In this document: piece by piece, positions 35,033 through 56,625 of the stretch
Layout of the letters: every line of letters starts with the position of its first letter
Numbering within the stretch: the stretch's first letter is position 1
Source: an uncultured Pseudomonadales bacterium
Lineage (GTDB): Bacteria > Patescibacteriota > Microgenomatia > UBA1400 > PJMF01
Direction of reading: 5' to 3'
Length of the DNA: 64,000 bases
NCBI GenBank assembly: GCA_964583625.1
Contig: CAZOVA010000001.1
Coordinates: 76,465-140,464 of the forward strand
Translations under genes and position numbers: made by a program
Notes under the pieces: model-generated
The model's database searches: none
What the model was told of the DNA's origin: nothing
The model's input: the letters and a program-made list of their open reading frames with translations, nothing else

Positions 35033-38000
35033 TTATCCAAAAAGAGTGCGAACGATTTGTCGTAAATTTCTCTTTTCTTTTTTCCTGTCTTGCCAAAAAA
35101 GATAGCCGAAGCCAGCAAGGGTGCCTAGCCACAAAATCATTCCTCCATAAGCCCAAATTTGAGGCCAATAATAAATTTTAACTAGCCATTGACCTCTGTC
35201 TACAGTCCAAGCATTGGCCCAACCGTTAAAAACCTGTGGTTTTTTAACTATTTTTTCCCCAGTTTCCTGATTGATAAACTTAGCCCGCCAAAGAGGATCA
35301 TAGCTTTGATGAAAAACTAATAAGTTGTTTTCGCTCTGACCAGCAAAAGTTAATTCATAACTAGCACTATTGTTTTTATGATATGCTCCTATCTGCGCCA
35401 CACTACTCACTTTTGCCAAATTTCTCTGTTGAGCGTAGATTTTACCTAGTCTTTGAATATTGACAGGAATAAAAATGAGCTCTGTCAAAGTATTTTCACT
35501 TTTCTGTCCAAAGGAATTAGTTTCAAAATTAAAAAATAATTCTTGGTAATTTTTTTTGTTCTGACTCATGAGATTATAAGTGATATCAAAATCACCTTCT
35601 GGCAAGAGTGTTTCTAAAAATCTTTGACCATTACTATCTTGAATGACGGCCATTTTCCAACTTCTTCCAGCCAAATTTTGTCCCTTCATTCTGAGCAAAT
35701 AATCGCTTCCATTATTAAAGTTTTCTGCCCTTATAGTTAGACAAGCATTACCCATTTTTTCAGCCCGCAACCAAAGTTTAGCTTCATTTTTTGCATTAAG
35801 ATTTTCGACTTCTCCTTCCTGAGAACAATTACCAATTTCCATTTTTTGCTTCAAATCAACTGCCTGTTCAAAACTTCGGTCAATTACTAATTCTAAATTT
35901 TTATTAGCTTCTTCTAAAACAAGAGAGGTGGTTTTTTTTAATGGTTCCAAGTAATTAGGGGTAAAAGTATAAGAAAAGGCGTTTTGGTAATTAATAATAT
36001 AAGAAATTTTCTCTGTTCTTTCTTGCGCATTAATTTTTCGATCATCGACAACAGTGATTTTCTGATTTTTATTTGGTAAAAATTGAAAAACGGCCACTTT
36101 ACTTTCTCCTTGAGCTAGAAAAACCACTTCTTGATTAAATTCCACCATAACTCTTTCAGCGCCCACCGAACTAATATCAATCTCCATATTTTGCAATTGA
36201 GGAATTTCAATTTTTTGTTTTCCATTATTAATATAGGTGCGAGGATAATCTAATAATAAATTCCCTCCCTCAAAACTTAGACGAACGGGAGTAATATAAG
36301 TCTCATTGTCTGCCAAAGCGGGCAGAGTCAGAGTCATGTTTTCCTGAGTAATTTTTTCACCTTTTAGAACTACTGTTTGGTCATGCCAACGGACCAGATC
36401 TTCGTTTTGTTCGGTGGTCAAAAAGGCAAAAGGATAAGTCAAGTCAGCTGTCTTTGAGAGTAAATAATCGCCACTATTTTCATAAAGAAAGTCTCTTTGT
36501 CCAGCAATAATATTTTTATTATTAACCAGTGAATATTTATCTGCTGCTTTGAAAAGAGCAGCTTCAGGATAAAACTGATACAGACTAAGAAAATCTTTTT
36601 GCCAGATCAGTTGACCACCACTAGCGCTTAAAAAGTCCTTTATTTCTTGATATTGCGCTCCTTTACCTTCATTAATAAAAGCACTTTCATCAAGTAAAAA
36701 TAAGCTTAAATTATATTGTTGCAAAACTTGAGAAAAAAGACTTTCGTTTTCTTGATTAAGAGCCAGATTCAACTGTCGATAAACTGTTTCATTAGTATTA
36801 ACCCAACGATCAAATTCTCTATCCAATAAAGCTTGAGGTAAACCGAACCACAGCCAGCCAGCTCCTTGATAACCACTCGTTTGCCAATCATGATAGGTCC
36901 AGCCGCTATAACTGAGCATTGGCAGTTTAACGACTACTTGTTCCTGATTGAGAAAGGTCAAAAAACTATAGAGTTCGTCATATTGTTTTGGAAAAGTGAC
37001 CTTCATTTTGTCACTCATTAAATGACCTGTCAAAGCCGGTAAATGAGCTAGCAATAAAAGCGTTATCGCCAATAGATTGACGGTAGTTGTTATTGTTCTT
37101 TTAGTTTCCCATTTTTTGGTTAATAATTCTTGAATAAAAACTAAGCCATTGGCAAAAAATACTACCAAAGCGAAAAGATAAATAATAGAAAACTTGGTAA
37201 AAGGAAAACGAATAGCTTCTTTTAGCAGAGGGAGTGAGCGAATTAATTGATATAGCCACTTGAGAGGAAAATTAAGATTGATTAAGAAAAAAAGACTTCC
37301 CAGAAAAACAGCCAGCAGAGCCAATGTTTGCCAAGTTTGTTTTTTCCAAGATTTATAAATACCAGCAAAAGCAATAATGACAAAAACATATTGTAAGAAA
37401 AATAAATGCGTTTTCTGATAATAAGAATTCCATTCGTCAAAAAGTGGGACAAATTCTCCTTTTTGCCAGTCTAAATCCTTCCAGTTAAAAAGGAAGTTTT
37501 TTCCTGTCAAAACTTGAGGTAACCAACCATAAGCTTGATTATTCCAAAAAGCCTCAGGAGAAAAATTTTGACTAATTTTTGCTTTACTAACATAATGAGA
37601 ATGAAAAATACTGTAATAAAAATTTGGCAATAACCAATAGCTATTGGCGGCTAAAACTAGAAAAATAAGAATTAAGATAGCTTTGATTTTTTTACGCCAG
37701 CCACCTCTTTTAGCCCAAAGCAGGAAAAACGTGTAAAGAAAAACAAAAGGCAGATACATATAGAAAAGGGTGGCGGTATGCGCGGCCGGCGCTGCCAAAG
37801 TTAAAACCACGAAAAACCAAAAATATTCCTGCAATCTGCCTCTTTCCACCGCTTTTTGCAAAGTGAGAAAAACCCAGGGTAAAGTCGCAAAGTGGACGGC
37901 GAACATTTCTAAAGGAACATAAAATTGTTGCAGAGTAATTAAGTTTAGTAGATAAAAAACTGCCGCCGCCGCTGCTGGCCAGGTAGTAAATTTTGTCTGG

Positions 38001-38362
38001 CGTAAAAAACAGAGAGTGAGAAAATAGTAGACGCCGATTCCACCTGTCACATAACAGATGAAAAAGAAAAGATAGCGATTAAGATTATTAGGAAATATTT
38101 GTAAAAGCCAAACTATTGGCAGTCTGACGATTTCCGCCAAGTGAGCTTGAGAAGCAGGAGCACCTAAACCCTGATGCGGTTGCCAAGCCCCCCAAAAAGT
38201 CCTTTGAAAGTATTGCGTTAAATTAAGTTCTGGCTGAAGAGTATCCCAACCGCTCAAAGTGGTTCCTGGTTTGATATTAATAATAGTGACCCAAAGAGCT
38301 ACTAAAACAATCGTTAGTAAAGGAAGATAAAGTTTAATTTTGGACCACCAAGAAGAGATCAT
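35033..38362 (-). CDS. large integral membrane protein (1109 aa): N-terminal roughly 450-aa polytopic domain plus large extracytoplasmic C-terminal domain; GT-C/Emb/YfhO-like architecture (tentative)
   Basis: At least 10 predicted TM helices followed by a long beta-rich soluble region. 4-nt overlap with the upstream GT-C gene. Confidence 0.5.
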   Translation of the reverse strand: MISSWWSKIKLYLPLLTIVLVALWVTIINIKPGTTLSGWDTLQPELNLTQYFQRTFWGAWQPHQGLGAPASQAHLAEIVRLPIVWLLQIFPNNLNRYLFFFICYVTGGIGVYYFLTLCFLRQTKFTTWPAAAAAVFYLLNLITLQQFYVPLEMFAVHFATLPWVFLTLQKAVERGRLQEYFWFFVVLTLAAPAAHTATLFYMYLPFVFLYTFFLLWAKRGGWRKKIKAILILIFLVLAANSYWLLPNFYYSIFHSHYVSKAKISQNFSPEAFWNNQAYGWLPQVLTGKNFLFNWKDLDWQKGEFVPLFDEWNSYYQKTHLFFLQYVFVIIAFAGIYKSWKKQTWQTLALLAVFLGSLFFLINLNFPLKWLYQLIRSLPLLKEAIRFPFTKFSIIYLFALVVFFANGLVFIQELLTKKWETKRTITTTVNLLAITLLLLAHLPALTGHLMSDKMKVTFPKQYDELYSFLTFLNQEQVVVKLPMLSYSGWTYHDWQTSGYQGAGWLWFGLPQALLDREFDRWVNTNETVYRQLNLALNQENESLFSQVLQQYNLSLFLLDESAFINEGKGAQYQEIKDFLSASGGQLIWQKDFLSLYQFYPEAALFKAADKYSLVNNKNIIAGQRDFLYENSGDYLLSKTADLTYPFAFLTTEQNEDLVRWHDQTVVLKGEKITQENMTLTLPALADNETYITPVRLSFEGGNLLLDYPRTYINNGKQKIEIPQLQNMEIDISSVGAERVMVEFNQEVVFLAQGESKVAVFQFLPNKNQKITVVDDRKINAQERTEKISYIINYQNAFSYTFTPNYLEPLKKTTSLVLEEANKNLELVIDRSFEQAVDLKQKMEIGNCSQEGEVENLNAKNEAKLWLRAEKMGNACLTIRAENFNNGSDYLLRMKGQNLAGRSWKMAVIQDSNGQRFLETLLPEGDFDITYNLMSQNKKNYQELFFNFETNSFGQKSENTLTELIFIPVNIQRLGKIYAQQRNLAKVSSVAQIGAYHKNNSASYELTFAGQSENNLLVFHQSYDPLWRAKFINQETGEKIVKKPQVFNGWANAWTVDRGQWLVKIYYWPQIWAYGGMILWLGTLAGFGYLFWQDRKKEKRNLRQIVRTLFG

Positions 38363-39957
38363 TTTACCCTCCTCATCAGTAATAACGGTCCATCACCACT
38401 TTGGTATTCAAAAACCTTTTCAAAGCGCGCGCTTTGGAGTAAGTAACTTTGCGCGAGACCAAGATTGGCCAAAGCGCGCGAGGCAGTCACGCCAGTTACT
38501 TGTGGTGAAACAATAAAATAAGCAAAATTATCCAAGTAGCTTTGCAAAACTGCCTCATTGTTAAAGTCAAGATCTCCTGGCACAGAAATAAAGGTAAAAT
38601 TGGGGATTTTTTTCTTGACCGTCAAGTAATGGAGGGTAGAAGCAGAGAGGTGAGGTTGATCTACTTGCAAAAGGACCTGAGATTTTTTGCCTCCAGCTAG
38701 TTTGACTAAATCTTCCAAAAGGAGGTGATTGGCTGAAGCATCTGGCTGCGGATAAGCGACAACAGTGTCACCAGTATTGATAATATCAATCCAGCCCAGA
38801 GGGCCAAAATTGAAAGCTCTTTGATAAGTGGGCAATAAGTGAAAGCTCAAAATAAAATAGAAAATGATCAACCAAGACAAAGCTAAACCACCCAAGAATT
38901 TTTTCCATTTTGCCCCATTCACTATTTCTACTGCCGCCGCCATCATCAAAGGGACCAATAGTGGCAAGTCGTAACGAATGTCTTTATTTGATAACAAGCT
39001 AAAAAAGATATAAATAAAAATCAAATAGGTAGCTAGAAGTTTTTTATATTTATTTTTCTTTTGATAAAAATAACTACCATTGAGAACTAAGAGAATGACG
39101 CCAGGAATAAGTCCAACCTGGAACCCTAAAAACTCCCATAAATAAAACCGCCAATTTTCTATAGACCACAAAACTTGAGGATCATCAATTTCGCCAGTAG
39201 TAGAAATTCTTGCTTGTTCTAAAATTGACTGCCAATTAGCTAGATACCAGGGAACAATCAAAACTAAGACAATAGCTATGAGCAAGAGAACCTGCCGCCA
39301 GACCTTACTCCAAAGTTTGTTTTTATATATTTTGTAAAGAACAAAAATTGCTGGTATAAAAAGAAAGACTAGTCCTGTCCATTTAGTTAAAAACACTCCG
39401 GCAACACTCAAAGCAAGAAAAATTGTTTCTCTTTTTTTGCTTAAAAATTGACTTTGCCACAAAAAATACCAACTCCAAACAACAAAAGCAAGCAAAGGAA
39501 TGTCAAGAAGAAACCAACGGGAATTGGTATAAATTACTGGTGAAAAAAGTAAAAAGGCGGCACTTAAAAGACCGATCCAGCGATTCCCCCACAATTTATT
39601 GCTCAACTTATAAATAGCAGTGGCTGTCAATAAAAGATAGAGAGTAATTAGAATAGCTCCCACTTGAACTTCACGCCCAAAAAACCTCATGCCAATTGCC
39701 ACTTGCCAATGAATGAGGGGAGGGTAGTAACTAGATATCTGCCAAAAACTTTTTTTAACTTTTGCTGGTTGAGCCCATTTATCAACAAATTCCATGCTTA
39801 GACGAGTATGTCCAGCTTGATCCCAAGAAGGAATTTGTCGGTCTAAGCTAATCCAGATAAGATTGACTAAAAGATGCAGACTCAAAAGCAATAAAAAAAG
39901 TCTCTGTGGCCAATCCAGATTGCGCCAAAATTTTATTATCACTCTTAAATTATACAA
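38359..39957 (-). CDS. GT-C fold glycosyltransferase, ArnT/PMT-like (GT39/GT83-like)
   Basis: Polytopic membrane protein with a first-loop acidic motif (IPSWDQAGHTRLSMEF) resembling the DE motif of PMT/ArnT-family transferases. Confidence 0.5.
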   Translation of the reverse strand: MYNLRVIIKFWRNLDWPQRLFLLLLSLHLLVNLIWISLDRQIPSWDQAGHTRLSMEFVDKWAQPAKVKKSFWQISSYYPPLIHWQVAIGMRFFGREVQVGAILITLYLLLTATAIYKLSNKLWGNRWIGLLSAAFLLFSPVIYTNSRWFLLDIPLLAFVVWSWYFLWQSQFLSKKRETIFLALSVAGVFLTKWTGLVFLFIPAIFVLYKIYKNKLWSKVWRQVLLLIAIVLVLIVPWYLANWQSILEQARISTTGEIDDPQVLWSIENWRFYLWEFLGFQVGLIPGVILLVLNGSYFYQKKNKYKKLLATYLIFIYIFFSLLSNKDIRYDLPLLVPLMMAAAVEIVNGAKWKKFLGGLALSWLIIFYFILSFHLLPTYQRAFNFGPLGWIDIINTGDTVVAYPQPDASANHLLLEDLVKLAGGKKSQVLLQVDQPHLSASTLHYLTVKKKIPNFTFISVPGDLDFNNEAVLQSYLDNFAYFIVSPQVTGVTASRALANLGLAQSYLLQSARFEKVFEYQSGDGPLLLMRRVK

Positions 39958-40024: not shown

Positions 40025-41692
40025 TTAATTGTTTGGTAGACCAATGACTTCGGTGGGATTAAAAACCACCTTATTACTCTCCCGATCGAGGGTAAAAGTG
40101 CCAGCCACTTTGGTTTTAATTGAGCCGTCCTGATCATACTCAGCAAAGACAGCCGTCAAACCTTGATAGGGCTGCATATCCAAATGATGTTGACCCTCAG
40201 TCAGTTGGCGGAAAATATCACCCACCTCGGAGATTTGAGAAAGCTTTCCCTCTTGTCCAGTTATCTCAATCAATTGTCCAGCGGGGATGTTTCCCTTGCC
40301 ATTGGTAATTGTTTCTAAGTGGGCAGGGATTTTGGCAAAACTAAGAGTGTTCCACCATTTGGCGTCCTGTCTCTCTTCTGGCGTTATTAAATTACCATTA
40401 ATACTAATTGAGCCATCCCCGGAAATCTTCAAAACTTGTTCCTTGATAGAGGCGGGGATGGTGACGTCCACTCGATCAATCAACCGCAAATCATTTTCGC
40501 CTGCAACATTGGCATTGGAATAACGAAACTCTTGCTCGTCAACACTTGGATCCCAGAAAGAAGTAACGAATTTTTCAATAACTTGTCCTTGCGGGCTAGA
40601 AAATTCAATTTTACTTTGTAAATCCATCTCTGAACGACGAGGATCAATATAGTTGTTTTCGGCAGTTCCTCCAATTGGTAAAGCATCAATAAAGGTCTGC
40701 CGGGCAAGTGATTCTTCGCCGGCCATTACTTCTTGTGCCATTGAAGAGGCTTCTTGCTCTGTTGTGGGGAGCTTGTCGACACCAATAACTTCGGTGGGAT
40801 TGAAAACAATTTTTCCTTGTTCATTGGCCATAAATGTCCCTTTTACTTGCTGGGCAATCTCACCATTCTCTGCAAAAACAGTAAAAGCAGCATTAATTCC
40901 TGTATAAGGTCTTTTTTCTCCGTCTTCCAGCAAATGTTCTTGTCCTTCTTGCAGTTGAAAAGAGATATCTCTTCTTTCGGCCTCTAGTGAAGGTCTCTCA
41001 CCATTAATAAATAGTTGACCAGAAGGGCGATTACCATGACCATCGGTCATCACTTCTACTCCAGCAGGGAACACGCCGATATTAAGATTGTTCCAATAGC
41101 CACTATCTTGTTGTTGATCGGAACGGACCAAACCCTCTTGTGTGCCCAAAGAACCATCACCAGATATTTTTAAGGTTTGTTCCTGACTAGAAGCAGGAAT
41201 AAAATTAATAATTTTATCTACCAAATACTGACCCTCAGATTCTCTATTGGAAGAGAGGAAGGGGACACTTTCTGCCTGAGCATCAAATAAGGAAAGAATA
41301 AACTGTTTGACTTCTGGACCTTGTTCACCTACCACCTCAATATTATTGATAAAGTCGGCTTTGGCTTTCTCAGGATCAAGAAATTGTTTCTCCTGTGGTC
41401 CATCAGCCACTAATTCATTGAGAAAAGCTTGTCTTTGCTCTGTTTCTCCGGCGAGACCTTCTTCCAGCCAAGCTAAGTTTTCTTGCGAAGGCATAGTGCC
41501 AGCCGTTTCCAATTTTGTTTTTGTATCTGTTTTGCTATTAGGGTCGCTAGCTGCCTCAGCTTTTTGTCCACCGCCACCACTAAAAGCTAGACCAATAGCT
41601 GTTACAATGGCGGCCGCTCCCCTGGCAAGTTTCTTTTTCTCTTTTTTCTTAAACTCTTCTTCCGTCCCCGGATATCCTTGTTCTAAGGCCAT
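40025..41692 (-). CDS. secreted/anchored hypothetical protein built from two homologous roughly 235-aa repeats
   Basis: N-terminal basic + hydrophobic + AEA signal. Internal duplication visible (…KISGDGSLGTQEGLV…KIVFNPTEVIGVDKLP… versus …KISGDGSISINGNLI…KVVFNPTEVIGLPNN). Confidence 0.6.
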   Translation of the reverse strand: MALEQGYPGTEEEFKKKEKKKLARGAAAIVTAIGLAFSGGGGQKAEAASDPNSKTDTKTKLETAGTMPSQENLAWLEEGLAGETEQRQAFLNELVADGPQEKQFLDPEKAKADFINNIEVVGEQGPEVKQFILSLFDAQAESVPFLSSNRESEGQYLVDKIINFIPASSQEQTLKISGDGSLGTQEGLVRSDQQQDSGYWNNLNIGVFPAGVEVMTDGHGNRPSGQLFINGERPSLEAERRDISFQLQEGQEHLLEDGEKRPYTGINAAFTVFAENGEIAQQVKGTFMANEQGKIVFNPTEVIGVDKLPTTEQEASSMAQEVMAGEESLARQTFIDALPIGGTAENNYIDPRRSEMDLQSKIEFSSPQGQVIEKFVTSFWDPSVDEQEFRYSNANVAGENDLRLIDRVDVTIPASIKEQVLKISGDGSISINGNLITPEERQDAKWWNTLSFAKIPAHLETITNGKGNIPAGQLIEITGQEGKLSQISEVGDIFRQLTEGQHHLDMQPYQGLTAVFAEYDQDGSIKTKVAGTFTLDRESNKVVFNPTEVIGLPNN

Positions 41693-41817
41693 AAGAACTC
41701 CTTTATTTGCTAGTCGATAATAATTTCATTATATCATAAGATACTTTTAGAGAGAAAATTTGCTTTTATTTAATTAAATAATTTAGTTAAATAGTTTGAT
41801 GTTTTCTTAAAAAGAAA

Positions 41818-41863
41818 GACCCCCGTTTTAAGGCGGGGGTCAGTCGAGAGCAACGCGCTCTCA
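41818..41863 (-). terminator. two tandem stem-loops (GACCCCCG-N8-CGGGGGTC and GAGAGC-N5-GCTCTC) immediately 3' of the GC-rich gene; the first is followed on the minus strand by a T-rich tract
   Basis: Read directly; positions approximate to about 1 nt. Confidence 0.5.
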
Positions 41864-41870
41864 GAAGTAC

Positions 41871-42590
41871 TTACCTGATCGGGTTGAGGGCGACGGTGTC
41901 GCCCATCTTAACGATCACAAAGTCATAGGTGCCGTCGTTGGCCAGGATGCGCACATCCAGGCCGTCGTACGGCTTGTTCTTCAGGTGCTCCACGGGAAGG
42001 AGAACCTGGATCCCAAGATCCCGGTATTCAGCCCAAGCATAGGGCTTAACACCGGCATCGAAGAGCTGGATGCTAGGCACCCAGCCCTTGCTGAAAACGA
42101 GCATCAGCTCGCCGTCAGCCGGGATGGTCATGAAGAACAAGGTATTCCTGCTGGGGTCTCCACCTTGGAGAGTCTCACCCAGCTTCTGTCCGTTCAAGAA
42201 CACCTCAACGAACGAACCGCTGATCTTGAGGACCTGTCCCGCTTTCACGGGGGTCCTCGCCACCTTGAGACCGTTTTCCTCAACGACGGTCAAGCCGTCG
42301 TTGAGCCACACAAAGTGTGGATTTTGATTCTCAATCTGGAAATATTGCCCCCAAGTAATGCGTTCAGCATCACTCAGGTTGACAATCCAGCCAGGCCCAT
42401 CATAGGTCTGAGTAGCTTGCTGCTGGAGATCCAAGGTCGCCAACAACTGCGCCACTTGCTCAGGGGTGCCGTAGAATACGGCCCCGCTGGGTAAGGTGAC
42501 AGGCACGAGTCCCGCGCCTTCCGCGAGGACGGTATTGGCGCCCAGCGCCAGGAGGATCAGGACAACAACGAGGATCATCAGTTTTTTCAT
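41871..42590 (-). CDS. secreted hypothetical protein encoded on a high-GC (about 57%) insert. Signal peptide MKKLMILVVVLILLALGANTVLA. An alternative in-frame upstream start at 42680 also carries an SD
   Basis: Codon usage (CTG, GCC, GGC, GTC) and GC content are sharply different from flanking genes. AAGGAGGG lies 7 nt before the ATG at 42590, and AAGGAGGT 7 nt before the ATG at 42680. Confidence 0.7.
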   Translation of the reverse strand: MKKLMILVVVLILLALGANTVLAEGAGLVPVTLPSGAVFYGTPEQVAQLLATLDLQQQATQTYDGPGWIVNLSDAERITWGQYFQIENQNPHFVWLNDGLTVVEENGLKVARTPVKAGQVLKISGSFVEVFLNGQKLGETLQGGDPSRNTLFFMTIPADGELMLVFSKGWVPSIQLFDAGVKPYAWAEYRDLGIQVLLPVEHLKNKPYDGLDVRILANDGTYDFVIVKMGDTVALNPIR

Positions 42591-42730
42591 GGGGTTTCCC
42601 TCCTTCTTAGCGCCTTGAGCGCTCTTTGTGGGGTTGATCCCCACCGTGGGTTCCTTGGTGTGCACGAACAGCTTCTTCATGATTTTTACCTCCTTCGGTG
42701 GGGATCATGGACCCCGTTTAGTCAGACCTT

Positions 42731-44414: not shown

Positions 44415-44473
44415 TGCAAGACATAACTTGCAAAAGTTACATTAGTTATTAATTGAAAGAAAGGTTTCTTTAT

Positions 44474-44893
44474 ATGAAGAAAGTCTTGAATAAGATCAGC
44501 ACAGCTGCTTCTTTGGGAGTGATTGCTTTGAGCAATGCTGGTATGGCTTTTGCTCAAGGGGGAAGAGCTGGAGTTAACATGGGCACTAATACCATTTTTC
44601 AAACTGGCGGTACAGCTGTAACTTCTGACCCCACGGTTTTGATTAAAAATGTAGTTAATCTGATTTTAATTTTGGCAGGCGCCTTAGTGTTTGCCTATTT
44701 AATCTGGGGAGCGATTAAATGGATTACTTCTGGTGGTGATAAATCCAAAGTGGAAGAAGCTAGAAATAAAATTACTTCAGCTATCGTCGGTCTTTTGATT
44801 TTAGCCGCTGTTTGGGCCATCTTCAACTTGGTCCTCACCATTGCTTTCGGAGCTGGAGACATGACGATCAAGTCATTAAACACTGCCACCTAA
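44474..44893 (+). CDS. pilin-like small membrane protein 1 (signal peptide plus two-TM hairpin); TrbC/VirB2-like T4SS pilin architecture
   Basis: MKKVLNKISTAASLGVIALSNAGMAFA-QG signal. Hairpin VLIKNVVNLILILAGALVFAYLIWGAI-KWITSGGDKSKVEEARNK-ITSAIVGLLILAAVWAIFNLVLTIAFG. No G/FTLIE type IV prepilin motif. Confidence 0.55.
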   Translation: MKKVLNKISTAASLGVIALSNAGMAFAQGGRAGVNMGTNTIFQTGGTAVTSDPTVLIKNVVNLILILAGALVFAYLIWGAIKWITSGGDKSKVEEARNKITSAIVGLLILAAVWAIFNLVLTIAFGAGDMTIKSLNTAT

Positions 44894-44926
44894 TTTGCTA
44901 ATTTTTAAAATATAAAAATTCTCAAA

Positions 44927-44951
44927 CCCCTCTTAAAAAAGAGGGGTTTTT
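44927..44951 (+). terminator. rho-independent terminator CCCCTCTT-aaaa-AAGAGGGG + TTTTTG
   Basis: 8-bp stem plus U-tract directly after pilin-like gene 1. A second promoter (TTGACA-17-TACACT, about 44954-44982) follows. Confidence 0.6.
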
Positions 44952-45004
44952 GTTTGACAAAGAGCCTCTTGTTTGATACACTCATCCTCATGAACTTTAA
45001 ATTT

Positions 45005-45448
45005 ATGAAAAAATTTCACTTAAAATCACCAATGGTCTTATTTTTGTCGGTCATTTTGTTTTTTGGACAAATACAGGCGGCGAGTCCAAATCCGAGTCCA
45101 AATCCGAGTCCAAATCCTAATACTGCTTATGCAATTGACTCTTTTAAACCTCAAAATATGAATGTAGCAACTGATGCCTCTAGTTTGATTGTTAATATTG
45201 TCAATACAGTAATTATGGTGGCTGTTATTTTAGCTTTTGTTTATTTACTCTACGGAGGTTTGTCGATGATCACCTCTGAAGGTGATGCGGCCAAAAAAGC
45301 CACCGCCAGACAAAGAATGACTTGGGCAGCGATTGGATTATTGATTTTTGCTGGTTCTTGGGCAATATTCAATTTAATCACCACCGTCGCTTTTGGCGGC
45401 ACAGACGTAGAATTGCCAGTATTTACTGACGAACAAGCTAATACTTAG
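45005..45448 (+). CDS. pilin-like small membrane protein 2 (paralog), with (SPNP)3 linker
   Basis: Start at MKKFHLKSPMVLFLSVILFFGQIQA-AS. Same TM1-loop(SEGDAAK)-TM2 core. The track's upstream extension was rejected because the promoter lies inside it. Confidence 0.55.
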   Translation: MKKFHLKSPMVLFLSVILFFGQIQAASPNPSPNPSPNPNTAYAIDSFKPQNMNVATDASSLIVNIVNTVIMVAVILAFVYLLYGGLSMITSEGDAAKKATARQRMTWAAIGLLIFAGSWAIFNLITTVAFGGTDVELPVFTDEQANT

Positions 45449-45469
45449 TGTAATAAAGAAAGATACTAT

Positions 45470-46430
45470 TAAAATTATGAAAAAAGGTTTCTTAAAAATT
45501 GGTAAAAGTCTTTTACTAAGTTTTTCTCTTTTAGCTTTGGCTTTTGTTCCAGTAGCGGCTCAAACCGACGAGAAAATCAAGGTGAGCACCTTTACTCAAT
45601 CAGCTGGTGATAAAGTGCCTACTAGTTCTACTGTTTTAATCACCAATATCGTCAATACTGTCTTAATTGTGGCTGCCGCTTTAGTTTTTGCCTATTTAAT
45701 CTATGGAGCTATTAGCTGGATTACTTCAGGTGGTGATAAATCCAAAGTAGAAACAGCCAGAAATAGAATTACCTCTGCCGCTTTAGGAATTCTCATTCTT
45801 GCTTCTGTTTGGGCCATCTACAATCTAGTTTTAACAATTGCTTTTGGCGGTCAAGATTTGCAAATTAAGAATTTGAATGAAGGAGTGGCAAACAGAATAA
45901 ATCAAGGAACCAGAAAAGACGAAACGGATAAAAGAGAAAAAGAAAGAGCTATATAAACTAGCCGTAACGAGGTAAAACTTTGAAAGTAAAAAAGGTAAAG
46001 AAAGGTATTAAAATAAAATTATGAAAAAAGGTTTCTTAAAAATTGGTAAAAGTCTTTTACTAAGTTTTTCTCTTTTAGCTTTGGCTTTTGTTCCAGTAGC
46101 GGCTCAAACCGACGAGAAAATCAAGGTGAGCACCTTTACTCAATCAGCTGGTGATAAAGTGCCTACTAGTTCTACTGTTTTAATCACCAATATCGTCAAT
46201 ACTGTCTTAATTGTGGCTGCCGCTTTAGTTTTTGCCTATTTAATCTATGGAGCTATTAGCTGGATTACTTCAGGTGGTGATAAATCCAAAGTAGAAACAG
46301 CCAGAAATAGAATTACCTCTGCCGCTTTAGGAATTCTCATTCTTGCTTCTGTTTGGGCCATCTACAATCTAGTTTTAACAATTGCTTTTGGCGGTCAAGA
46401 TTTGCAAATTAAGAATTTGAATGAAGGAGT
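45470..46430 (+). repeat. 417-bp perfect tandem duplication (45470-45886 = 46014-46430, period 544 bp) spanning 7 nt of 5' UTR plus the first 137 codons of pilin-like genes 3 and 4
   Basis: Sequences identical by eye over the whole interval. They diverge exactly at the C-terminal tail. Confidence 0.8.
45477..45956 (+). CDS. pilin-like small membrane protein 3 (paralog), charged C-terminal tail
   Basis: MKKGFLKIGKSLLLSFSLLALAFVPVAA-QT signal. Conserved hairpin core. Tail …NRINQGTRKDETDKREKERAI. Confidence 0.55.
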   Translation: MKKGFLKIGKSLLLSFSLLALAFVPVAAQTDEKIKVSTFTQSAGDKVPTSSTVLITNIVNTVLIVAAALVFAYLIYGAISWITSGGDKSKVETARNRITSAALGILILASVWAIYNLVLTIAFGGQDLQIKNLNEGVANRINQGTRKDETDKREKERAI

Positions 46431-46533
46431 AGCGGAAAATGCTGCTCCCCTTGGCGGCGGCGTTGGAGGTGGCGCCCTTGGCGGCGGCGTTGGAGGTGGC
46501 GCAGGTTCTGTTGTCATGACTGCTGCTGAATAG
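46021..46533 (+). CDS. pilin-like small membrane protein 4 (paralog), Gly-rich C-terminal tail (GGGVGGGALGGGVGGGAGS) encoded by a 27-bp x2 tandem repeat
   Basis: Identical to gene 3 through residue about 137, then …ENAAPLGGGVGGGALGGGVGGGAGSVVMTAAE. Confidence 0.55.
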   Translation: MKKGFLKIGKSLLLSFSLLALAFVPVAAQTDEKIKVSTFTQSAGDKVPTSSTVLITNIVNTVLIVAAALVFAYLIYGAISWITSGGDKSKVETARNRITSAALGILILASVWAIYNLVLTIAFGGQDLQIKNLNEGVAENAAPLGGGVGGGALGGGVGGGAGSVVMTAAE

Positions 46534-46570: not shown

Positions 46571-46597
46571 CCCTCACTTGTAAAAGTGAGGGTTTTT
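46571..46597 (+). terminator. rho-independent terminator CCCTCACTT-gtaa-AAGTGAGGG + TTTTT (end of pilin array; bidirectional with respect to recO)
   Basis: 9-bp perfect stem plus U-tract. Confidence 0.6.
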
Positions 46598-46610: not shown

Positions 46611-47147
46611 TCAAGCTCGTAAATATTCAAAACTGTGCAAAGTTCGCCCAGTCAATTCACTCACTAGAGAACTAACAGAGCACTGCATTTCTTTTTGTTG
46701 ATCCCAATAACCTAGTTCTGCCAATAAGGCTTGGAAAGACTCTTTTATTTTTTGATTGTTCATGTTTTGTAAGAGTAGTTCCCTCAAACTCAGCACTTGC
46801 TGAAAGAGATGAGGAGAAAGCTCTTCTTCAGTCAATAATAAATCAATAATCTCCAAATAAAGCAGAAAACGACGCAAACGACTTAAAGAGAAGCGAGTTT
46901 CGCCGATAGTGCCCACGAGGCAGGCTTGAGTTAAAATAGGCCAAGATTTGGTTTTAACAAGTTGCACTTGAACCAAATTGCCTGGTTCAAGATAGGGTCT
47001 TTTTTTGGAGTTTAACTTGCAAGTGCCTTTGGCAACAGTAATAATTTTTCCCAGCTCGCAAGTGAGAAGAGTGACCAATAGGTCACTCTCTCTACTTTTT
47101 TTCACTTTGATCACAATCGCTAAAAGATTGCGACTTTTATATTTCAC
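46611..47147 (-). CDS. recO: DNA repair protein RecO, truncated form lacking the C-terminal zinc-finger region
   Basis: N-terminal OB-fold pattern (LLAIVIKVKKSRESDLLVTLLTCELGKIITVAKGTCKLNSKKRPYLEPGNLVQVQL) and helical domain (RFLLYLEIIDLL…). Confidence 0.5.
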   Translation of the reverse strand: MKYKSRNLLAIVIKVKKSRESDLLVTLLTCELGKIITVAKGTCKLNSKKRPYLEPGNLVQVQLVKTKSWPILTQACLVGTIGETRFSLSRLRRFLLYLEIIDLLLTEEELSPHLFQQVLSLRELLLQNMNNQKIKESFQALLAELGYWDQQKEMQCSVSSLVSELTGRTLHSFEYLRA

Positions 47148-47152
47148 CGTTT

Positions 47153-48184
47153 TTATTCTTCGTCTTCTTGACGGGCTTTCTTCAATTTCTCATCTAATTT
47201 GTTCAGCTTTTCTTCTTCTAGATCGAGCATTTTGGCATATTTTTTACGAGTAGTAACGCTGACGATGATAATTAAAATAATTACTAATAAGATGGCTAAG
47301 ATAGTGCGAACGGGCACAATCCAAAACCGAGCTTCTACTGGTACTAGCTCTTTACCGCTGCTTGCCCCATAAATACCACTCAAGTGGGCAGTGTAGCGAC
47401 CGAAACCCCAATGAGCATTCCATTCGCCCTTCATCTCTCTTTCACTATCAGGAAAGATATTTTTTTGTTCTGGAGCTAAGGTAGCCATTTCTTTGCCAAA
47501 CATATTTTTAATGACAATTTTTGTTTCTGGACGAATATGTAAGCTAGAATTATTTTCTATTTTGTAACTATAAGCAACTGGGCCAAATTCGCTAAATTTT
47601 TTGAAAGCAAAATCTTTTATTTCAGCTTCTTCGGCGATTTCTCCATCAACTACGACATAGAGAAGTGTTCCTACTTGAGCAGTAATTTTAGCCCCAGTAG
47701 TTTCTGTTTCTCCTGTTCCCATTGCTGGTTTGTGTAAAACCATAGCATAACGTCCCCCTGGAAGAGCATCTTCTGGCACATTAATAGTGACCATTAAAGC
47801 AGCTGAGCCATAAGGCTTCAAAGCTACATTATTGGGAGTGACTGTCAGCCATTGAGCCAAGCTCCATTTACTACTCACTTCATCCTCAACAGCAATCGGC
47901 GTTTCTCCGTCTGGAGCGATAATAAAATCACGAGCAAAAGTTTCCACGGTGGCGGGATAAGCTGAAGGATTGCGAACTTCAATAGTAGTTTGAGTTTTTT
48001 GTCCTGGCTTAACCACTAAGCTGTAATCATCACCTAAGCGGGGAGGAACGGCAGTCAGAGCAATTTCTCCAGGGTTGGCCACAGGAGGAGTGTCTGTTTG
48101 GGCCCAAATTTGACTGGAGAAAAGACCTAAAAATCCCCCAACTATTAGTAGGGTGAGAGAGGAGATTTTATTAATTGATTTCAT
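47153..48184 (-). CDS. cell-surface protein with signal peptide, about 280-aa ectodomain, C-terminal TM anchor and charged tail; resembles the DUF916/CscA-type anchored surface protein architecture
   Basis: MKSINKISSLTLLIVGGFLGLFSSQIWA-QT signal. C-terminal ILAILLVIILIIIV TM plus KK/EE-rich tail. Confidence 0.55.
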   Translation of the reverse strand: MKSINKISSLTLLIVGGFLGLFSSQIWAQTDTPPVANPGEIALTAVPPRLGDDYSLVVKPGQKTQTTIEVRNPSAYPATVETFARDFIIAPDGETPIAVEDEVSSKWSLAQWLTVTPNNVALKPYGSAALMVTINVPEDALPGGRYAMVLHKPAMGTGETETTGAKITAQVGTLLYVVVDGEIAEEAEIKDFAFKKFSEFGPVAYSYKIENNSSLHIRPETKIVIKNMFGKEMATLAPEQKNIFPDSEREMKGEWNAHWGFGRYTAHLSGIYGASSGKELVPVEARFWIVPVRTILAILLVIILIIIVSVTTRKKYAKMLDLEEEKLNKLDEKLKKARQEDEE

Positions 48185-48203
48185 AAAGTTTTATTTCCCT
48201 TTC

Positions 48204-49631
48204 TTAAAAAGATGCTGTTACTGTATAAGTGACACTGGTATTATATTTTCCAGGAATATTTGTATTGGAAGAATTAATTTTATAACAAAGATTAACAATG
48301 TCGCCATTGGTAGAACGAAGGTTATTAATAATTTGCAAAGTAGTTTCTCCGTCAGCTTTGTCAGCAAAACTGCTCCAACCGCTAGCTCCGCCAGCAGCAT
48401 TAACACCATTGTAAGTAAAATTGGGAGTAACATTAGGAATATTACCGTTCAAGTATTTATCTCCATCTACCACTTCCATAGAGAAACCAAAGTTTCCTGT
48501 AGTCGCTGGGGCGGTCCAGGCTGTCGCAGTTCCTGGAGTACCAAAATTAGGAATACAAATATCATTACCTAAACCATTTCCTGGGCAACCATCACCATCC
48601 AAACTCATCTGGTCACTGCCAATAGCGGTCACTACATAGCCATTAGCAGCATTAGTAGTGACAGTTAGCTTTTGTGCTGCCTGGGAAAACTGAAGATTGC
48701 TAATCGAACCAAAAGGAACGAGTGATCCCGTAGTGCTAGCAGAAGTGCTAGCTCCACAAGCAGCAACACTATTACCTACACCCTCAATTTTGAAACTTAA
48801 CTGCGGAGCTACTCTGACAACCATTTTGACAGCATTAGCAAAACCGACAGCTGTTGTTTCAGTAAAAACATTTACTCCGGCCCTTTCTTGTTTTAAAGAG
48901 ATCAACATGGAATTAAAGTCACCGACAGTGTCTCCGATTTTAGCCGTCGGATTAATCAAGCCTGTAACGACGAACTCCAATTGCTGATTGGCGGAGGCGG
49001 TCGCCTCAGTGTATTGACAACTAAAAAGATGATTGGGATTGGTTGTCCCGCCTGTTCCCACTGGGGCAGAGGTGGCCGTATAACCAGCTGGGCAAGTGAT
49101 GCTGGCATTGGTATTGAAATCAAAACCATCAATATCTGGTAAACCATCATTAGCAATTGCGGCACTAGCAGTAGCTGCTGGAAAATTAATAGTCAAAATA
49201 TCATTTTGTTGGAGATTGGTAACAGTCGCTTTAATTTTGATAGGACCGCTAGCTCGATGATAAACAGGCGTACCAGCAGCAATATTAGCTGTGGCTAGCA
49301 AACCGTCAAGGGGAATTTCATTATTCTTCAAAAGAGCACTACTAGTAGCTACCTTATAAATAATATTCCCAATTAAGACACTGTCACCATTAATTAATTG
49401 TTGACTAGAAACTGAATAGATCCCCTGAGCTTCATTAGCCACTGTTTCTATCAAAGCTAAGGAAGTATAGGCAACATTACCGCTAGCTAGTTTTCCTCTA
49501 AATGAAAGTCTAGAATTACTTGGAAAAATTTCTACTTGGTTTTGAGCAGCCGCTCTTTCGGGAATAAATAAGATAAGAGAGATAAGAATAAATACGGTCA
49601 ATTTAATCGAAAAATTCTTAAATAATTTCAT
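48204..49631 (-). CDS. secreted Thr/Asn/Gly/Ala-rich beta-rich surface protein (475 aa); possible partner of the anchored protein (WxL/Csc-like arrangement, tentative)
   Basis: Signal peptide MKLFKNFSIKLTVFILISLILFIPERAAA-QN. Low-complexity T/G/N-rich body. No LPXTG motif. Confidence 0.55.
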   Translation of the reverse strand: MKLFKNFSIKLTVFILISLILFIPERAAAQNQVEIFPSNSRLSFRGKLASGNVAYTSLALIETVANEAQGIYSVSSQQLINGDSVLIGNIIYKVATSSALLKNNEIPLDGLLATANIAAGTPVYHRASGPIKIKATVTNLQQNDILTINFPAATASAAIANDGLPDIDGFDFNTNASITCPAGYTATSAPVGTGGTTNPNHLFSCQYTEATASANQQLEFVVTGLINPTAKIGDTVGDFNSMLISLKQERAGVNVFTETTAVGFANAVKMVVRVAPQLSFKIEGVGNSVAACGASTSASTTGSLVPFGSISNLQFSQAAQKLTVTTNAANGYVVTAIGSDQMSLDGDGCPGNGLGNDICIPNFGTPGTATAWTAPATTGNFGFSMEVVDGDKYLNGNIPNVTPNFTYNGVNAAGGASGWSSFADKADGETTLQIINNLRSTNGDIVNLCYKINSSNTNIPGKYNTSVTYTVTASF

Positions 49632-49782
49632 AGTATTTACTTACTAAATTTTCTTTTTCCAACACAAAACTACTTTTTCAAAAGTACTCCATTCCATTTT
49701 ATCTCAATTTTTTAAAAAAGGCAAGACCTATTTTATTTTTGGGCTTTTTTAGTAAGAAAAAAATGATTTTTATTTAAAACGG

Positions 49783-49815
49783 TCAACAAAAACCCCCACT
49801 AATATTTAGTGGGGG
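49783..49815 (-). terminator. rho-independent terminator of the tuf/str operon (TAGTGGGGG/CCCCCACTA stem followed by TTTTTGTTG on the minus strand)
   Basis: 9-bp stem plus T-tract 25 nt after the tuf stop. Confidence 0.6.
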
Positions 49816-49838
49816 TTTAAAATTTATAAATAATTTTT

Positions 49839-51029
49839 TTATTTAATAATTTTGGTGATAGCTCCCGCACCCACGGTGTGACCTCCTTCGCGGATAGCAA
49901 AGCGCAAACCGTCGGCCATCGCCACCGGAGCGATCAGTTTAACGGTAATAGCAGCATTGTCTCCTGGCATAACCATTTCTAAACCATCAGCCAATTTGAT
50001 TTCACCAGTGACATCAGTGGTTCGAATATAAAACTGCGGTCGATAGCCATTGGTGAAGGGTTTGTGGCGTCCACCTTCTTCTTTGGTCAAAATATAAACC
50101 TGCGCTTCAAACTCAGTATGAGCAGTGACACTGTTTGGTTTGGCTAAAACCTGACCACGCTCAACGTCATCTTTTTCAATACCGCGCAAGAGAATACCAA
50201 CATTATCACCAGCTTCACCAGTATCCAAAAGTTTGTGGAACATTTCCACTCCAGTAACGACTGACTTTTTCTTTTCTTTTAGACCAATGATTTCTACTTC
50301 TTCGCCGACTTTAACTACACCAGACTCAATTCTACCAGTAACGACTGTTCCACGGCCAGAGATAGAGAAGACATCCTCAATTGGCATCAAAAAAGGTTTA
50401 TCAAGATCTCTTTTAGGATCGGGGATATATTCGTCGACTGTCTTCATTAATTCCATGATTTTGTCTTGGGCAGCAGCGTCTCCCTCCAAAGCTTTCAAAG
50501 CAGAAACACGGACGATAGGAGTCTTTTCTCCATCATAACCGTATTTTGTTAACAAATCACGCACTTCCATTTCCACCAAATCTAAAAGTTCAGCATCGTC
50601 AACCATATCACATTTGTTCAATGCCACCACAATTTTTGGTACGTTCACTTGTTTAGCCAAAAGAATATGTTCTCTAGTCTGAGGCATGGGACCATCGGTG
50701 GCTGCGACCACTAAGATTGCGCCATCCATTTGAGCGGCGCCAGTGATCATATTTTTAATATAGTCAGCGTGTCCAGGAGCATCGATGTGAGCATAATGAC
50801 GCTTTTCAGTTTCATATTCTAGATGGGAGATATTAATAGTCACTCCTCTTTTAGCTTCTTCTGGAGCATTATCAATATCCAAATAACCCATAGCCTTGTT
50901 GATATCTGTGGGTAATTTTGCTGCTAAAGTGGTAGTAATTGCTGCCGATAGGGTGGTTTTTCCATGATCGACGTGACCAATAGTACCAACATTCACATGA
51001 GTTTTTTTGCGTTCATATTTCTCCGCCAT
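49839..51029 (-). CDS. tuf: elongation factor Tu
   Basis: Canonical EF-Tu sequence ([10 protein letters not shown]…[26 protein letters not shown]…). Confidence 0.95.
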
Positions 51030-54855: not shown

Positions 54856-56625
54856 TTGTTTATGTTTACTAAAAATTTACCTATAAAGGTTCGGTCTTTG
54901 TTCTATGACGGTATTTTTACTCAGTTAACGAAGTTTACTTTTATTTTCCTTATTCTTTGTTTCTTTTTAAGGAGTGATGCTAGGGCGCAAACCACAGTTG
55001 AGCAACAATGGGTGAAAAGTTTTGGCGGAGGCAGTGAAGACCTCTTTCTTTCTTTAGTTACTACTAATGATGGTGGTTATTTAGTCGCCGGGCAAAGCAA
55101 ATCTACTAATGCCGGTTTTACCAATCAAGGAGGATTTGATGCCATCATTGTTAAATACGATAGTGCTGATAATCAAGAGTGGGTAAAGAACTTTGGCGGC
55201 AGCGGTAATGATTATTTTACTTACATTGTTAAGGCCAATGATGGTGGCTATTTAGCTGCCGGAATAAGTAGCTCTACTAATGCCGGTTTTACCAATCAAG
55301 GAGGATTTGATGCCATCATTGTTAAATATGATAGTAATTACGTCCAACAATGGGTGAAAAATTTTGGGGGTGGCAATATTGATGCTTTTAAATTCCTTAA
55401 TGCCACCAATGATGGTGGTTATTTGGCTGTTGGTTATAGTTATTCCACCAATGCTAGTTTTGTTAATAAAGGAAGTTCTGATGCCATCATTATTAAATAC
55501 GACAGCGCTGGTAATCAAGAGTGGGCAAAGAACTTTGGTGGAGGCAGTGATGATTATTTTTTTGCCTCTATTTCTAACTCTGAGAATGGTTATTTGGCTG
55601 TTGGTTATAGTTATTCCACCAATGCCGGCTTCACTAATAAAGGGGGGATTGATGCTGTTTTAGTTAAATACGACAGTGCTGGCAATCAGCAATGGGTGAA
55701 AAATTTTGGGGGAAGTGGTAGTGATGATTTTTACTCTCTGATTAATACCGGTGATGGTGGCTATTTAGCTAGTGGTGATAGCAGTTCCACCAATGCCGGC
55801 TTCACTAATAAAGGGGGGATTGATGCTGTTTTAGTTAAATACGACAGTGCTGGCAATCAGCAATGGGTGAAAAATTTTGGGGGTGGAGGCAGTGATCACT
55901 TTTTTTCTCCTATTAATACCAGCGATGGCGGGTATTTGGTAACTGGCAATAGCGGTTCCACCAATGCTGGCTTCACTAATAAAGGGGGAATTGATACTAT
56001 TTTAGTTAAATACGACAGTGCTGGCAATCAGCAATGGGTGAAAAATTTTGGTGGGGGCAGTGATGACGGCTCTGCTTGCCTCATTGCCAATAGCAGCGGT
56101 GATTATTTGCTGGTTGGTGATAGCCGTTCCACCAATGCCGGATTCACTAATAAAGGAATGAATGACGGCGTTTTAATCAAGTACAAAACCTATCTGCTCT
56201 CGGCCTATCCTCAAGCTCAATTAGATTACCAAGCACCTGACCCTCAACTTCCCTTTAATATCAAAGAACTAAGTCCCAAAGACCAAGAAACCAGTATTAG
56301 TGGTCAATTAATAGCCAATAAAGAAACTAAAACTTATAATTTAAGTTTAGAACTGAAAGATGGTAATACTTTAATTAAAACCTATACTTTAAATAACTTT
56401 CAAGTACCTGCTAATAATACTAAAACCTTTAACTTTACCATTCCCACCATTGATTTTAATCCTTCAGTCTCCAACTTTACCTTTCAAGGTCCACATGTTC
56501 TTAAAATTACCGATACTAGTAATAATCTAACCACTACCCTTAACTGGAATCTTACCTTTTCTTTTCCTGCCTATAATATCTTGCATCAAATCAATGGTGG
56601 GAATTATATTAGGGTGTATAGATAG
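54856..56625 (+). CDS. secreted beta-propeller repeat protein (about 13 tandem roughly 46-aa SBBP-like repeats) plus C-terminal beta-sandwich-like domain
   Basis: Repeat unit WVKNFGGGSDD…DGGYL..G.S.STNAGFTNKGGIDA.LVKYDSAGNQQ recurs about 13 times. Several copies are near-identical at the DNA level (for example about 55617-55710 versus 55782-55875). Confidence 0.65.
   Translation: MFMFTKNLPIKVRSLFYDGIFTQLTKFTFIFLILCFFLRSDARAQTTVEQQWVKSFGGGSEDLFLSLVTTNDGGYLVAGQSKSTNAGFTNQGGFDAIIVKYDSADNQEWVKNFGGSGNDYFTYIVKANDGGYLAAGISSSTNAGFTNQGGFDAIIVKYDSNYVQQWVKNFGGGNIDAFKFLNATNDGGYLAVGYSYSTNASFVNKGSSDAIIIKYDSAGNQEWAKNFGGGSDDYFFASISNSENGYLAVGYSYSTNAGFTNKGGIDAVLVKYDSAGNQQWVKNFGGSGSDDFYSLINTGDGGYLASGDSSSTNAGFTNKGGIDAVLVKYDSAGNQQWVKNFGGGGSDHFFSPINTSDGGYLVTGNSGSTNAGFTNKGGIDTILVKYDSAGNQQWVKNFGGGSDDGSACLIANSSGDYLLVGDSRSTNAGFTNKGMNDGVLIKYKTYLLSAYPQAQLDYQAPDPQLPFNIKELSPKDQETSISGQLIANKETKTYNLSLELKDGNTLIKTYTLNNFQVPANNTKTFNFTIPTIDFNPSVSNFTFQGPHVLKITDTSNNLTTTLNWNLTFSFPAYNILHQINGGNYIRVYR

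Follow-up and report, generated by a model that had tools for sequence, protein, structure and literature searches.

Organization of the locus

The window analysed here is a stretch of 64,000 nucleotides (nt) from an uncultured bacterium of the Microgenomatia (contig CAZOVA010000001.1), and the subject of this text is a pair of neighbouring genes on it, which code for a secreted protein of 475 amino acids (aa) and a membrane-anchored protein of 343 aa. They are called the pilin and the chaperone in the following, after the Pam-type pilus that they probably represent. The pilin gene (48204..49631) and the chaperone gene (47153..48184) are both located on the minus strand, start with ATG, and are separated by 19 nt. 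The gene order 5' of the pilin gene is rpsO-rpsL-rpsG-fusA-tuf, with tuf in the region 49632-51029 on the minus strand. An intrinsic terminator is located 3' of tuf at about 49815-49785 on the same strand and reads CCCCCACTAA-ATA-TTAGTGGGGG, followed by TTTTTGTT. Its hairpin, with a G+C-rich stem of 10 bp and a loop of 3 nt, was read by eye and is present in both the minimum-free-energy and the centroid fold; a simple pattern scanner for terminators did not list it. It parts tuf from the pilin gene, and the spacer between the two genes is 207 nt long. A sigma-70-like promoter candidate, TTGCCT-17-TAAAAT, was found at 49724..49696 (minus strand) in a consensus scan with 9 of 12 matches, as a pattern match only. 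An earlier note on this DNA, made from the letters alone, had described two co-directional genes downstream of a tuf terminator; their coordinates are exact, and the terminator is seen in the sequence as well as in the fold.

The same note took the two genes for an operon of their own. The recO gene (46611..47147, minus strand; RecO_N with E 1e-14 and TIGR00613 with E 1e-17) starts 5 nt 3' of the chaperone gene, and the next clear terminator comes after recO. This is a bidirectional terminator-like hairpin, listed on both strands at 46592..46571 by the terminator scan, between recO and an array of T4SS_pilin genes on the plus strand. For these reasons the transcription unit is probably pilin-chaperone-recO and not the two genes alone: its position downstream of the tuf terminator stands, but recO is probably co-transcribed with the pair, although functionally it is outside the module.

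The secreted 475-aa protein

The pilin begins with a signal peptide (aa 1-29), a hydrophobic leader ending with ...ERAAA|QNQ, and its mature part contains 11.4% A, 10.5% T, 9.9% N, 9.9% G, and 8.7% S. It ends with ...TVTASF without a C-terminal anchor. No [LIV]Px[TSA][GAS] (LPxTG-like) motif was found in the pilin or in the chaperone, and a sortase-assembled pilus was rejected for lack of such a motif. The AlphaFold2 model, built on an alignment of 23 sequences, is all-beta with two domains according to the strands assigned by DSSP. It has a mean predicted local distance difference test (pLDDT) score of 87.8 and a predicted template modelling (pTM) score of 0.58, the latter being consistent with two domains that are loosely oriented. 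The earlier description of the protein was right about the signal peptide, the T/N/G-rich composition, the beta structure, and the missing sortase motif, but not about a low-complexity body, as judged by its model the protein is a confidently folded all-beta secreted protein.

The N-terminal domain is a beta-sandwich of aa ~30-265 (48837..49544, minus strand; DSSP strands at 32-265). It is followed by an inter-domain linker of aa 266-285 (AVKMVVRVAPQLSFKIEGVG; 48777..48836, minus strand), with a strand at 278-284 that is the candidate donor strand, and by a C-terminal immunoglobulin (Ig)-like domain (CTD) of aa 286-475 (48207..48776, minus strand), supported by the match to family NF058581 and by conservation. 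When conservation was scored across 83 non-identical homologues, the linker had a mean of 0.71, compared with 0.57-0.58 for the two domains. The means were 0.77 for the first mature strand at aa 32-48 (SNSRLSFRG), 0.78 for the CTD segment QKLTVTTNAANGYVVTA at aa 318-340, and 0.72 for the last 21 residues, which carry an invariant ...TYTxTAxF with an invariant terminal Phe. Six Cys residues are conserved, Cys180 and Cys205 in the N-terminal domain and Cys292, Cys349, Cys359, and Cys449 in the CTD, and disulfides among them are candidate pairs. An Asp-rich motif N-D-G-[LI]-P-D-x-D-G-F-D-F at aa 161-173 (49113-49151, minus strand) is nearly invariant family-wide. It belongs to the N-terminal domain, is noted there as NDGLPDxDGFDF (aa 161-172), and looks like a calcium-binding DxDxDG loop.

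A Pfam scan of the pilin identified no domain. The NCBIfam model NF058581 (CPR_Pam_pilin_C, 'Pam pilus system pilin subunit') matches aa 301-475 with E 8.8e-5 and 22.6 bits, colinear with positions 2-148 of the 148 in the model. The model also matched 19 of 23 close relatives (best E 1.9e-9) and 43 of 77 diverse representatives of the family (best E 2.8e-8), below the cut-off in both sets, and is the sole NCBIfam family with more than one matching member; the rest are single-member matches with weak E-values. An exhaustive HMMER search with the pilin profile gave 1,956 clusters (50% identity) at E<=1e-3 and 1,140 at E<=1e-10. Nothing useful was obtained with the pilin sequence and profile from all chains of the PDB, in a copy without the PamA/PamB entries 25PZ and 25QA.

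The membrane-anchored 343-aa protein

The chaperone has a signal peptide (aa 1-28; leader ending with ...QIWA|QTD) and an ectodomain of about 260 aa, after which a single segment of strong hydrophobicity, at aa ~294-312, represents a transmembrane (TM) helix and lies in a long helix of the AlphaFold2 model; a K/E-rich cytoplasmic tail follows at aa 313-343 (RKKYAKMLDLEEEKLNKLDEKLKKARQEDEE). This layout had been read from the sequence before and is confirmed here. The ectodomain is modelled as two beta-sandwich Ig-like domains, aa ~44-181 and ~187-290 (pLDDT 87.8, pTM 0.74). Structure prediction of both proteins, proposed in the earlier note, resulted in one model of each, with the same pLDDT. 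The segment aa 155-181 (47642..47722, minus strand) consists of a variable loop (aa ~155-170) and a conserved strand, VGTLLYVVVDG, with G172, L174, and Y176 conserved; the loop is poorly ordered, with pLDDT 77 and 63 in the blocks of 151-170 and 96 thereafter. By analogy, this segment is a candidate complementing strand and would correspond to the F1-G1 loop plus G1 strand in PapD and to the WxLIP hairpin. An invariant Arg (R49) is located in the first strand.

The annotation as a PapD/WxLIP-like chaperone is based on the model, hydropathy, Foldseek, hhalign, and PF06030. In a Foldseek search of the PDB, the WxLIP of E. faecium was at the top (9i1y and 9i25, E 8e-13 to 4e-12), followed by CfaA, CupB2, CsuC, DraB, FimC, Caf1M, and SafB (E 4e-10 to 5e-8); RbmA was found too. 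PF06030 (WxLIP_PGBD, formerly DUF916) matches the chaperone with E 4e-4 and 20.9 bits, below its gathering threshold of 27.3. It matches 47 of 52 chaperone relatives at E<=0.01, several of which have a precomputed PF06030 assignment. The profile of the chaperone family recognized EfmWxLIP1 as the best of the PDB sequences (E 0.002). When the family was aligned in hhalign with three WxLIPs from Enterococcus, Lactococcus, and Lactiplantibacillus plasmids, the probability was 96.2% with E 2.3e-9 over 261 columns, which cover both domains and the TM helix. PF11797 (DUF3324/WxLIP_HBD) was not found in the chaperone at E<=1, and it is absent from the 23 families that any of the 52 matched at E<=0.01. 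In NCBIfam scans, the chaperone family gave no Pam chaperone model, just noise from the TM helix and tail. In an indexed search, 262 chaperone relatives were identified among 5,199 candidates; like the pilin gene with its many clusters, the chaperone gene is real and conserved. Taken together, the anchored protein is remotely homologous to WxLIP, has a PapD-like fold, and carries a membrane anchor.

Gene pairing in related loci

When the species representatives of GTDB were searched with the chaperone alignment, 80 loci were obtained; for the neighbouring array described below, 91 related loci (L001-L091) were scanned. In the 80 GTDB loci, a pilin-family gene coding for 450-576 aa lies directly upstream of the chaperone gene wherever upstream sequence exists. 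Eight further distinct loci from metagenomes and metagenome-assembled genomes (L095 included) have pilin homologues, ~27-46% identical in the seven with full-length pilins, and the next gene is always of the chaperone family. These loci include a contig of Kaiserbacteria, with a PamB-sized pilin of 371 aa directly upstream of the chaperone gene. Four additional contigs bear the pilin sequence of the window itself. It could be supposed that the two are unrelated envelope proteins that are only co-located, for example a surface-layer or wall protein and a membrane protein of another role, and indeed neither protein reaches a curated family threshold and the fold matches of the pilin are generic. 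This explanation is nevertheless highly improbable, as both the gene order and the adjacency hold without exception in more than 80 loci, where the pilins are as little as ~25-30% identical, and the fold match of the chaperone is specific.

In the clade of the window (L001/L018, L008, L012-L017, and L019; chaperone identity of at least 51%) the pilin-chaperone pair is the only part present. It is placed between tuf and recO in most of these loci, with the order tuf-pilin-chaperone-recO in L001, L008, L013, L014, and L017. About three quarters of the 80 loci, and most of the Microgenomatia loci, have a larger operon composed, in this order, of a small pilin (~255 aa), chaperone-1 (~330 aa), a major pilin, and chaperone-2, which is of the window type, usually followed by a multi-Ig protein of ~690 aa that has faint CarboxypepD_reg or Big domains. 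The small pilin of L002 matches NF058579 (CPR_pilus_PamT) over its full length with E 1.7e-10, and also NF058581. The larger operon is opened, 5' of the PamT-like pilin, by a gene for a conserved polytopic membrane protein of ~230 aa with a coiled-coil tail and no family match (4438-5142 in L002, 3665-4345 in L007). A second, shorter pilin paralogue of 392-394 aa, PamB-sized and without the first ~115 profile positions, is coded in L001 (683-1861) and L009 (12849-14033). It is followed by two CarboxypepD_reg-like proteins, of 873 and 359 aa in L001 and of 780 and 472 aa in L009.

Every named relative is from the Patescibacteria, Pacebacteria, Woesebacteria, or Microgenomates, in agreement with the reported distribution of Pam pilins. 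The full four-gene operon was also seen in records whose titles give candidate division TM6, Methylococcaceae, Limisphaerales, Vitreimonas sp., or Pseudomonadales (L086, which is CP011212.1, L033, L042, L055, and others). These labels are probably wrong, because the operon is the same and the G+C content is 35-47%; many records labelled 'uncultured Pseudomonadales bacterium' or similarly, with the same operon and 35-53% G+C, likewise look mislabelled. If any of the labels is right, the system is not confined to the candidate phyla radiation (CPR).

Relationship to Pam pili

The filaments of Candidatus Mycosynbacter amalyticus resolved by cryo-electron microscopy are those of the pilins PamA and PamB, and the pam operon codes for PapD/FimC-like chaperones PamC and PamD with an unusual C-terminal TM helix; the operon also has genes for PamT, a tip pilin of one domain, for a further pilin, PamE, and for PamR, an anchor (Troman et al., bioRxiv 10.64898/2026.03.03.709456). 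In that work, PamA homologues of Microgenomatia, with ~21% identity, were reached by language-model search only (bioRxiv 10.64898/2026.03.03.709456). The pair of the window has good chances of being the core of such a Pam-type, usher-less, chaperone-assisted donor-strand pilus of the ultra-small CPR bacteria, in the minimal two-gene layout of this recently described system and placed directly behind tuf. Common features are a CPR host, no usher found, and no sortase signal. The architecture of PamA/PamB, with a signal peptide, an N-terminal beta-sandwich, a linker strand, a C-terminal Ig-like domain, and conserved Cys, is that of the window pilin, and conservation peaks in the linker, in a CTD strand, and in the C-terminal strand, as reported for Pam pilins. 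The adjacent PapD-like chaperone has the C-terminal TM helix that is the mark of PamC/PamD, and relatives of the window have a PamT-like small pilin. Unlike in the pam operon, there is one pilin and one chaperone between tuf and recO, without the multi-gene arrangement, PamT/PamE/PamR, and the ATP-synthase neighbourhood. The sequences of the window are also only remotely related to Pam proteins, with every match below curated cut-offs, and its chaperone is demonstrably DUF916/WxLIP-related.

Several points weigh against this reading. The NF058581 match of the pilin (22.6 bits) does not reach the curated cut-off of 55, nor does the NF058579 match of the small pilin of L002 (40.7 bits with a cut-off of 240). 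The likeness to PamA-PamD is by description and not by direct comparison of sequences or structures. Fold searches with the pilin model gave generic Ig-like adhesin and pilin domains only, and the closest solved structure of the chaperone is a WxLIP, known in complex with WxL and not from a fibre. A search of the whole 64-kb window gave neither a further pilin or tip pilin nor another chaperone, a PamR-like anchor, the ~690-aa protein, or other accessory genes of the relatives, which bears on how a fibre would be capped and anchored. Since the curated NCBIfam cut-offs are not reached, membership is argued from consistent sub-threshold homology, architecture, and context, and on these grounds the module most probably belongs, as a remote member, to the Pam system. 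The chaperone is most likely the equivalent of PamC/PamD by architecture and context rather than by sequence comparison, because no Pam chaperone model matched.

The genes with their signals for export and anchoring, the folds, the homologies, and the strict pairing are shown by the analysis, whereas strand complementation, polymerisation, and function are drawn here after the PamA/PamB structures, the AlphaFold predictions of PamC/PamD complexes in the Pam preprint, and the work on WxLIP and WxL. Both proteins would be exported by Sec, and the C-terminal helix of the 343-aa protein would keep it anchored to the cytoplasmic membrane. Its first Ig-like domain would capture a newly exported pilin, whose C-terminal Ig-like domain is taken to be incomplete, and insert into that domain the strand at aa ~171-179, after the flexible loop (~155-179 in all). 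In donor-strand exchange, the linker (aa 266-285) of an incoming pilin would then displace the chaperone strand from the CTD of the next subunit, a role proposed for this linker by analogy with PamA/PamB, and the large N-terminal domain would add lateral contacts. The indirect support for such polymerisation into a helical filament is the high conservation of the linker and the C-terminal strands. The product would be a thin extracellular fibre for contact with a host cell or a surface in an episymbiotic organism of the Microgenomatia type. The module is a strong candidate for a host-contacting fibre; a host-attachment module of an episymbiont, one of the suggestions made earlier, is plausible as a pilus in its own right.

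EF-Tu is the most abundant protein of M. amalyticus and PamA the second (supplementary Table S1 of bioRxiv 10.64898/2026.03.03.709456). In the window, the pilin gene is directly behind tuf. Read-through of the tuf terminator could add to the expression of the pilin.

Relationship to Csc/WxL complexes

The pairing had been compared in the earlier note with the Csc/WxL clusters, in which a DUF916-type anchored protein is paired with a wall-bound partner. In the clusters of Lactobacillales and Listeria (PMC10599100; PDB 9i1y and 9i25), the anchored protein of ~340-380 aa has a signal peptide, two Ig-like domains, and a C-terminal TM helix, is homologous to the window chaperone by profile and fold, and is likewise paired with secreted beta-rich partners without sortase signals. 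The pair of a small and a large WxL protein parallels the small and large pilins of the Microgenomatia operons. The window differs from these clusters in its partner protein, which shows no WxL domain by Pfam or hhalign and no W-x-L motif, and in the chaperone, in which the DUF3324 model is unmatched and the WxLIP signature NQIDKxxxYFDLK is replaced by PPRLGDDYSLVVKP; also, no LPXTG CscD-like protein is present. Csc/WxL systems are described as peptidoglycan-bound complexes and not as fibres. The DUF916 half of the comparison and the strictly conserved pairing are supported, but a WxL partner is not. Of the domain models named in the earlier note, DUF916 (PF06030) gave its sub-threshold match, and neither DUF3324 (PF11797) nor WxL (PF13731) was matched. 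PF13731 had no match in the pilin and 22 relatives at E<=10. When the 83-sequence alignment of the pilin CTD, or the alignment of the small pilins, was compared in hhalign with an alignment of 13 WxL sequences, the probability was 0.2%, and global hhalign was no better. The 475-aa protein as a WxL protein is thus unsupported, with Pfam, hhalign, and motif all negative.

A complex of the WxL/Csc type would do without a fibre: the WxLIP-like protein would bind the 475-aa protein 1:1 by strand insertion and display it as an adhesin. In its favour, the chaperone matches WxLIP/DUF916 best in structure, profile, and Pfam searches, and the clade of the window has a single secreted partner, with no tip or anchor genes nearby. 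A complex of WxLIP with a long WxL protein has been solved (PDB 9i25), and in AlphaFold2 predictions the WxLIP hairpin completes the WxL sandwich (PMC10599100). We regard this explanation as rather unlikely, because neither a WxL domain nor its motifs are detectable in the partner, whose CTD matches the Pam pilin model instead, and because the linker strand ranks with the best-conserved parts, as a donated strand should. Moreover, the related operons with a PamT-like tip subunit and two chaperones have the layout of a fibre system, and the homologous proteins of M. amalyticus are proven filaments (bioRxiv 10.64898/2026.03.03.709456). The Pam-type pilus is therefore preferred to the non-polymeric complex.

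A wider idea is that Pam pili, in CPR, and Csc/WxL clusters, in Firmicutes, are two branches of one ancient usher-less, anchored-chaperone, donor-strand family of single-membrane envelopes. As a whole this is a tentative proposal, somewhat doubtful at present. Its chaperone half is supported by the homology of the window chaperone family to WxLIP. In its other half, the WxL domain may be a diverged counterpart of the Pam pilin CTD. Three colinear motif resemblances are seen between the two domains, without statistical support: xFG near the domain start, G-[WY]-x-V-x-A, and a C-terminal Y-x3-[IV]-T-[WY]-x-[LV/TA]. If the idea is true, either WxL proteins can polymerise or the module of the window is a non-polymerising 'display' intermediate.

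Relationship to chaperone-usher pili

With the pili assembled by PapD/FimC, CfaA, CsuC, and Caf1M, the pair shares the two-domain Ig-like fold of the chaperone and the presumed donor-strand complementation and exchange. In PapD, Arg8 anchors the carboxylate of the subunit, and the invariant C-terminal Phe of the pilin together with Arg49 of the chaperone recalls this anchoring. In contrast to these systems, an outer membrane is absent and an usher was not found, the chaperone is tethered in the membrane and not soluble, and the pilin has an extra large N-terminal domain, with a donor strand thought to be an internal linker instead of an N-terminal extension. No usher domain was identified among the flanking and large window ORFs (open reading frames) that were scanned, which are not all ORFs of the window. 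The classical chaperone-usher pilus was rejected, as no usher was found and the chaperone is TM-anchored.

The neighbouring T4SS_pilin array

Four tandem genes for VirB2-like pilins of the type IV secretion system (T4SS; PF18895 in Pfam) are located at 44453-46533 on the plus strand. The array is convergent with recO, and recO and the bidirectional terminator separate it from the pair. The last two genes (45477-45956 and 46021-46533) code for products identical over the first ~133 residues, which suggests a recent duplication, and the product of the last gene has a Gly-rich tail, APLGGGVGGGALGGGVGGGAGS. A hidden Markov model of the four genes found the array near the pair in the window and in L008, L013, L014, and L017 only, that is in 4 of the 91 loci scanned; it is absent from the other 87, including L001 of the same clade. 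Since this adjacency is limited to the window and these four loci, it is clade-specific synteny with no evidence of functional coupling.

The earlier note saw the pair directly beside the array and proposed it as an adhesin or anchor partner of that appendage. Neighbours they are, but on opposite strands, convergent, and with recO between. VirB2-like pilins (PF18895; PMC12102498) are, like the pair, surface appendage subunits, and they are its neighbours in the window and its closest relatives. Their fold is unrelated, as they are small two-helix membrane pilins, and they do not co-occur with the pair outside the clade of the window. That the pair is an accessory of a VirB2-like T4SS appendage has physical proximity to the four genes in its favour, here and in L008, L013, L014, and L017. 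We give this almost no credit, as the array is on the other strand behind recO and the terminator, the adjacency is missing in nearly all loci, the pair is always linked to Pam-type genes instead, and the scanned ORFs of the window gave no gene for a T4SS ATPase or channel. A functional link between the pair and the array was rejected because of the strand, the terminator, and the lack of co-occurrence.

Significance

The module offers a concrete annotation for a very large family of 'hypothetical' CPR surface proteins, of ~2,000 clusters at 50% identity, with the cognate chaperone always adjacent. The minimal conserved unit across Microgenomatia and Paceibacteria is a pilin with a membrane-anchored chaperone. 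DUF916 and WxL are not mentioned in the Pam preprint (bioRxiv 10.64898/2026.03.03.709456), and because of this the homology between the CPR chaperones and WxLIP is a useful cross-link. It joins the new Pam pilus work with the older, mechanistically unresolved work on WxL/DUF916 in Enterococcus, Listeria, and Lactobacillus, and two questions become testable: whether WxLIP is a PapD-like assembly chaperone, and what the origin of chaperone-usher-type assembly is.

Other genes of the window

A glycosyltransferase resembling O-mannosyltransferases of the PMT family (PF02366, E 2e-12) is coded at 38359-39957 on the minus strand, and its gene overlaps by 4 nt an ORF for 1,109 aa (35033-38362, minus strand) without a Pfam domain. 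In M. amalyticus, Ser356 of PamA bears an O-linked sugar (bioRxiv 10.64898/2026.03.03.709456), so the glycosyltransferase gene is possibly relevant. The region 40025-42680 (minus strand) codes for a secreted protein of 555 aa with an obvious internal duplication, both repeats of which end with ...VFNPTEVIG..., and for a secreted protein of 269 aa that ends with ...VALNPIR. These have no Pfam match and only a faint match to CshA fibril repeats, and the G+C content of the region is raised to 0.43-0.44, compared with 0.35-0.39 nearby. Large ORFs without a Pfam match at E<=1e-5 are located at 205-3204, 8364-11903, 12009-14087, and 17992-19347 (999, 1,179, 692, and 451 aa) in an otherwise housekeeping region. 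A secreted protein of 589 aa with SBBP-type beta-propeller repeats is coded at 54856-56625 on the plus strand; it matches NF047494 (LipL53 family) with E 2e-28, far below the cut-off of that model.

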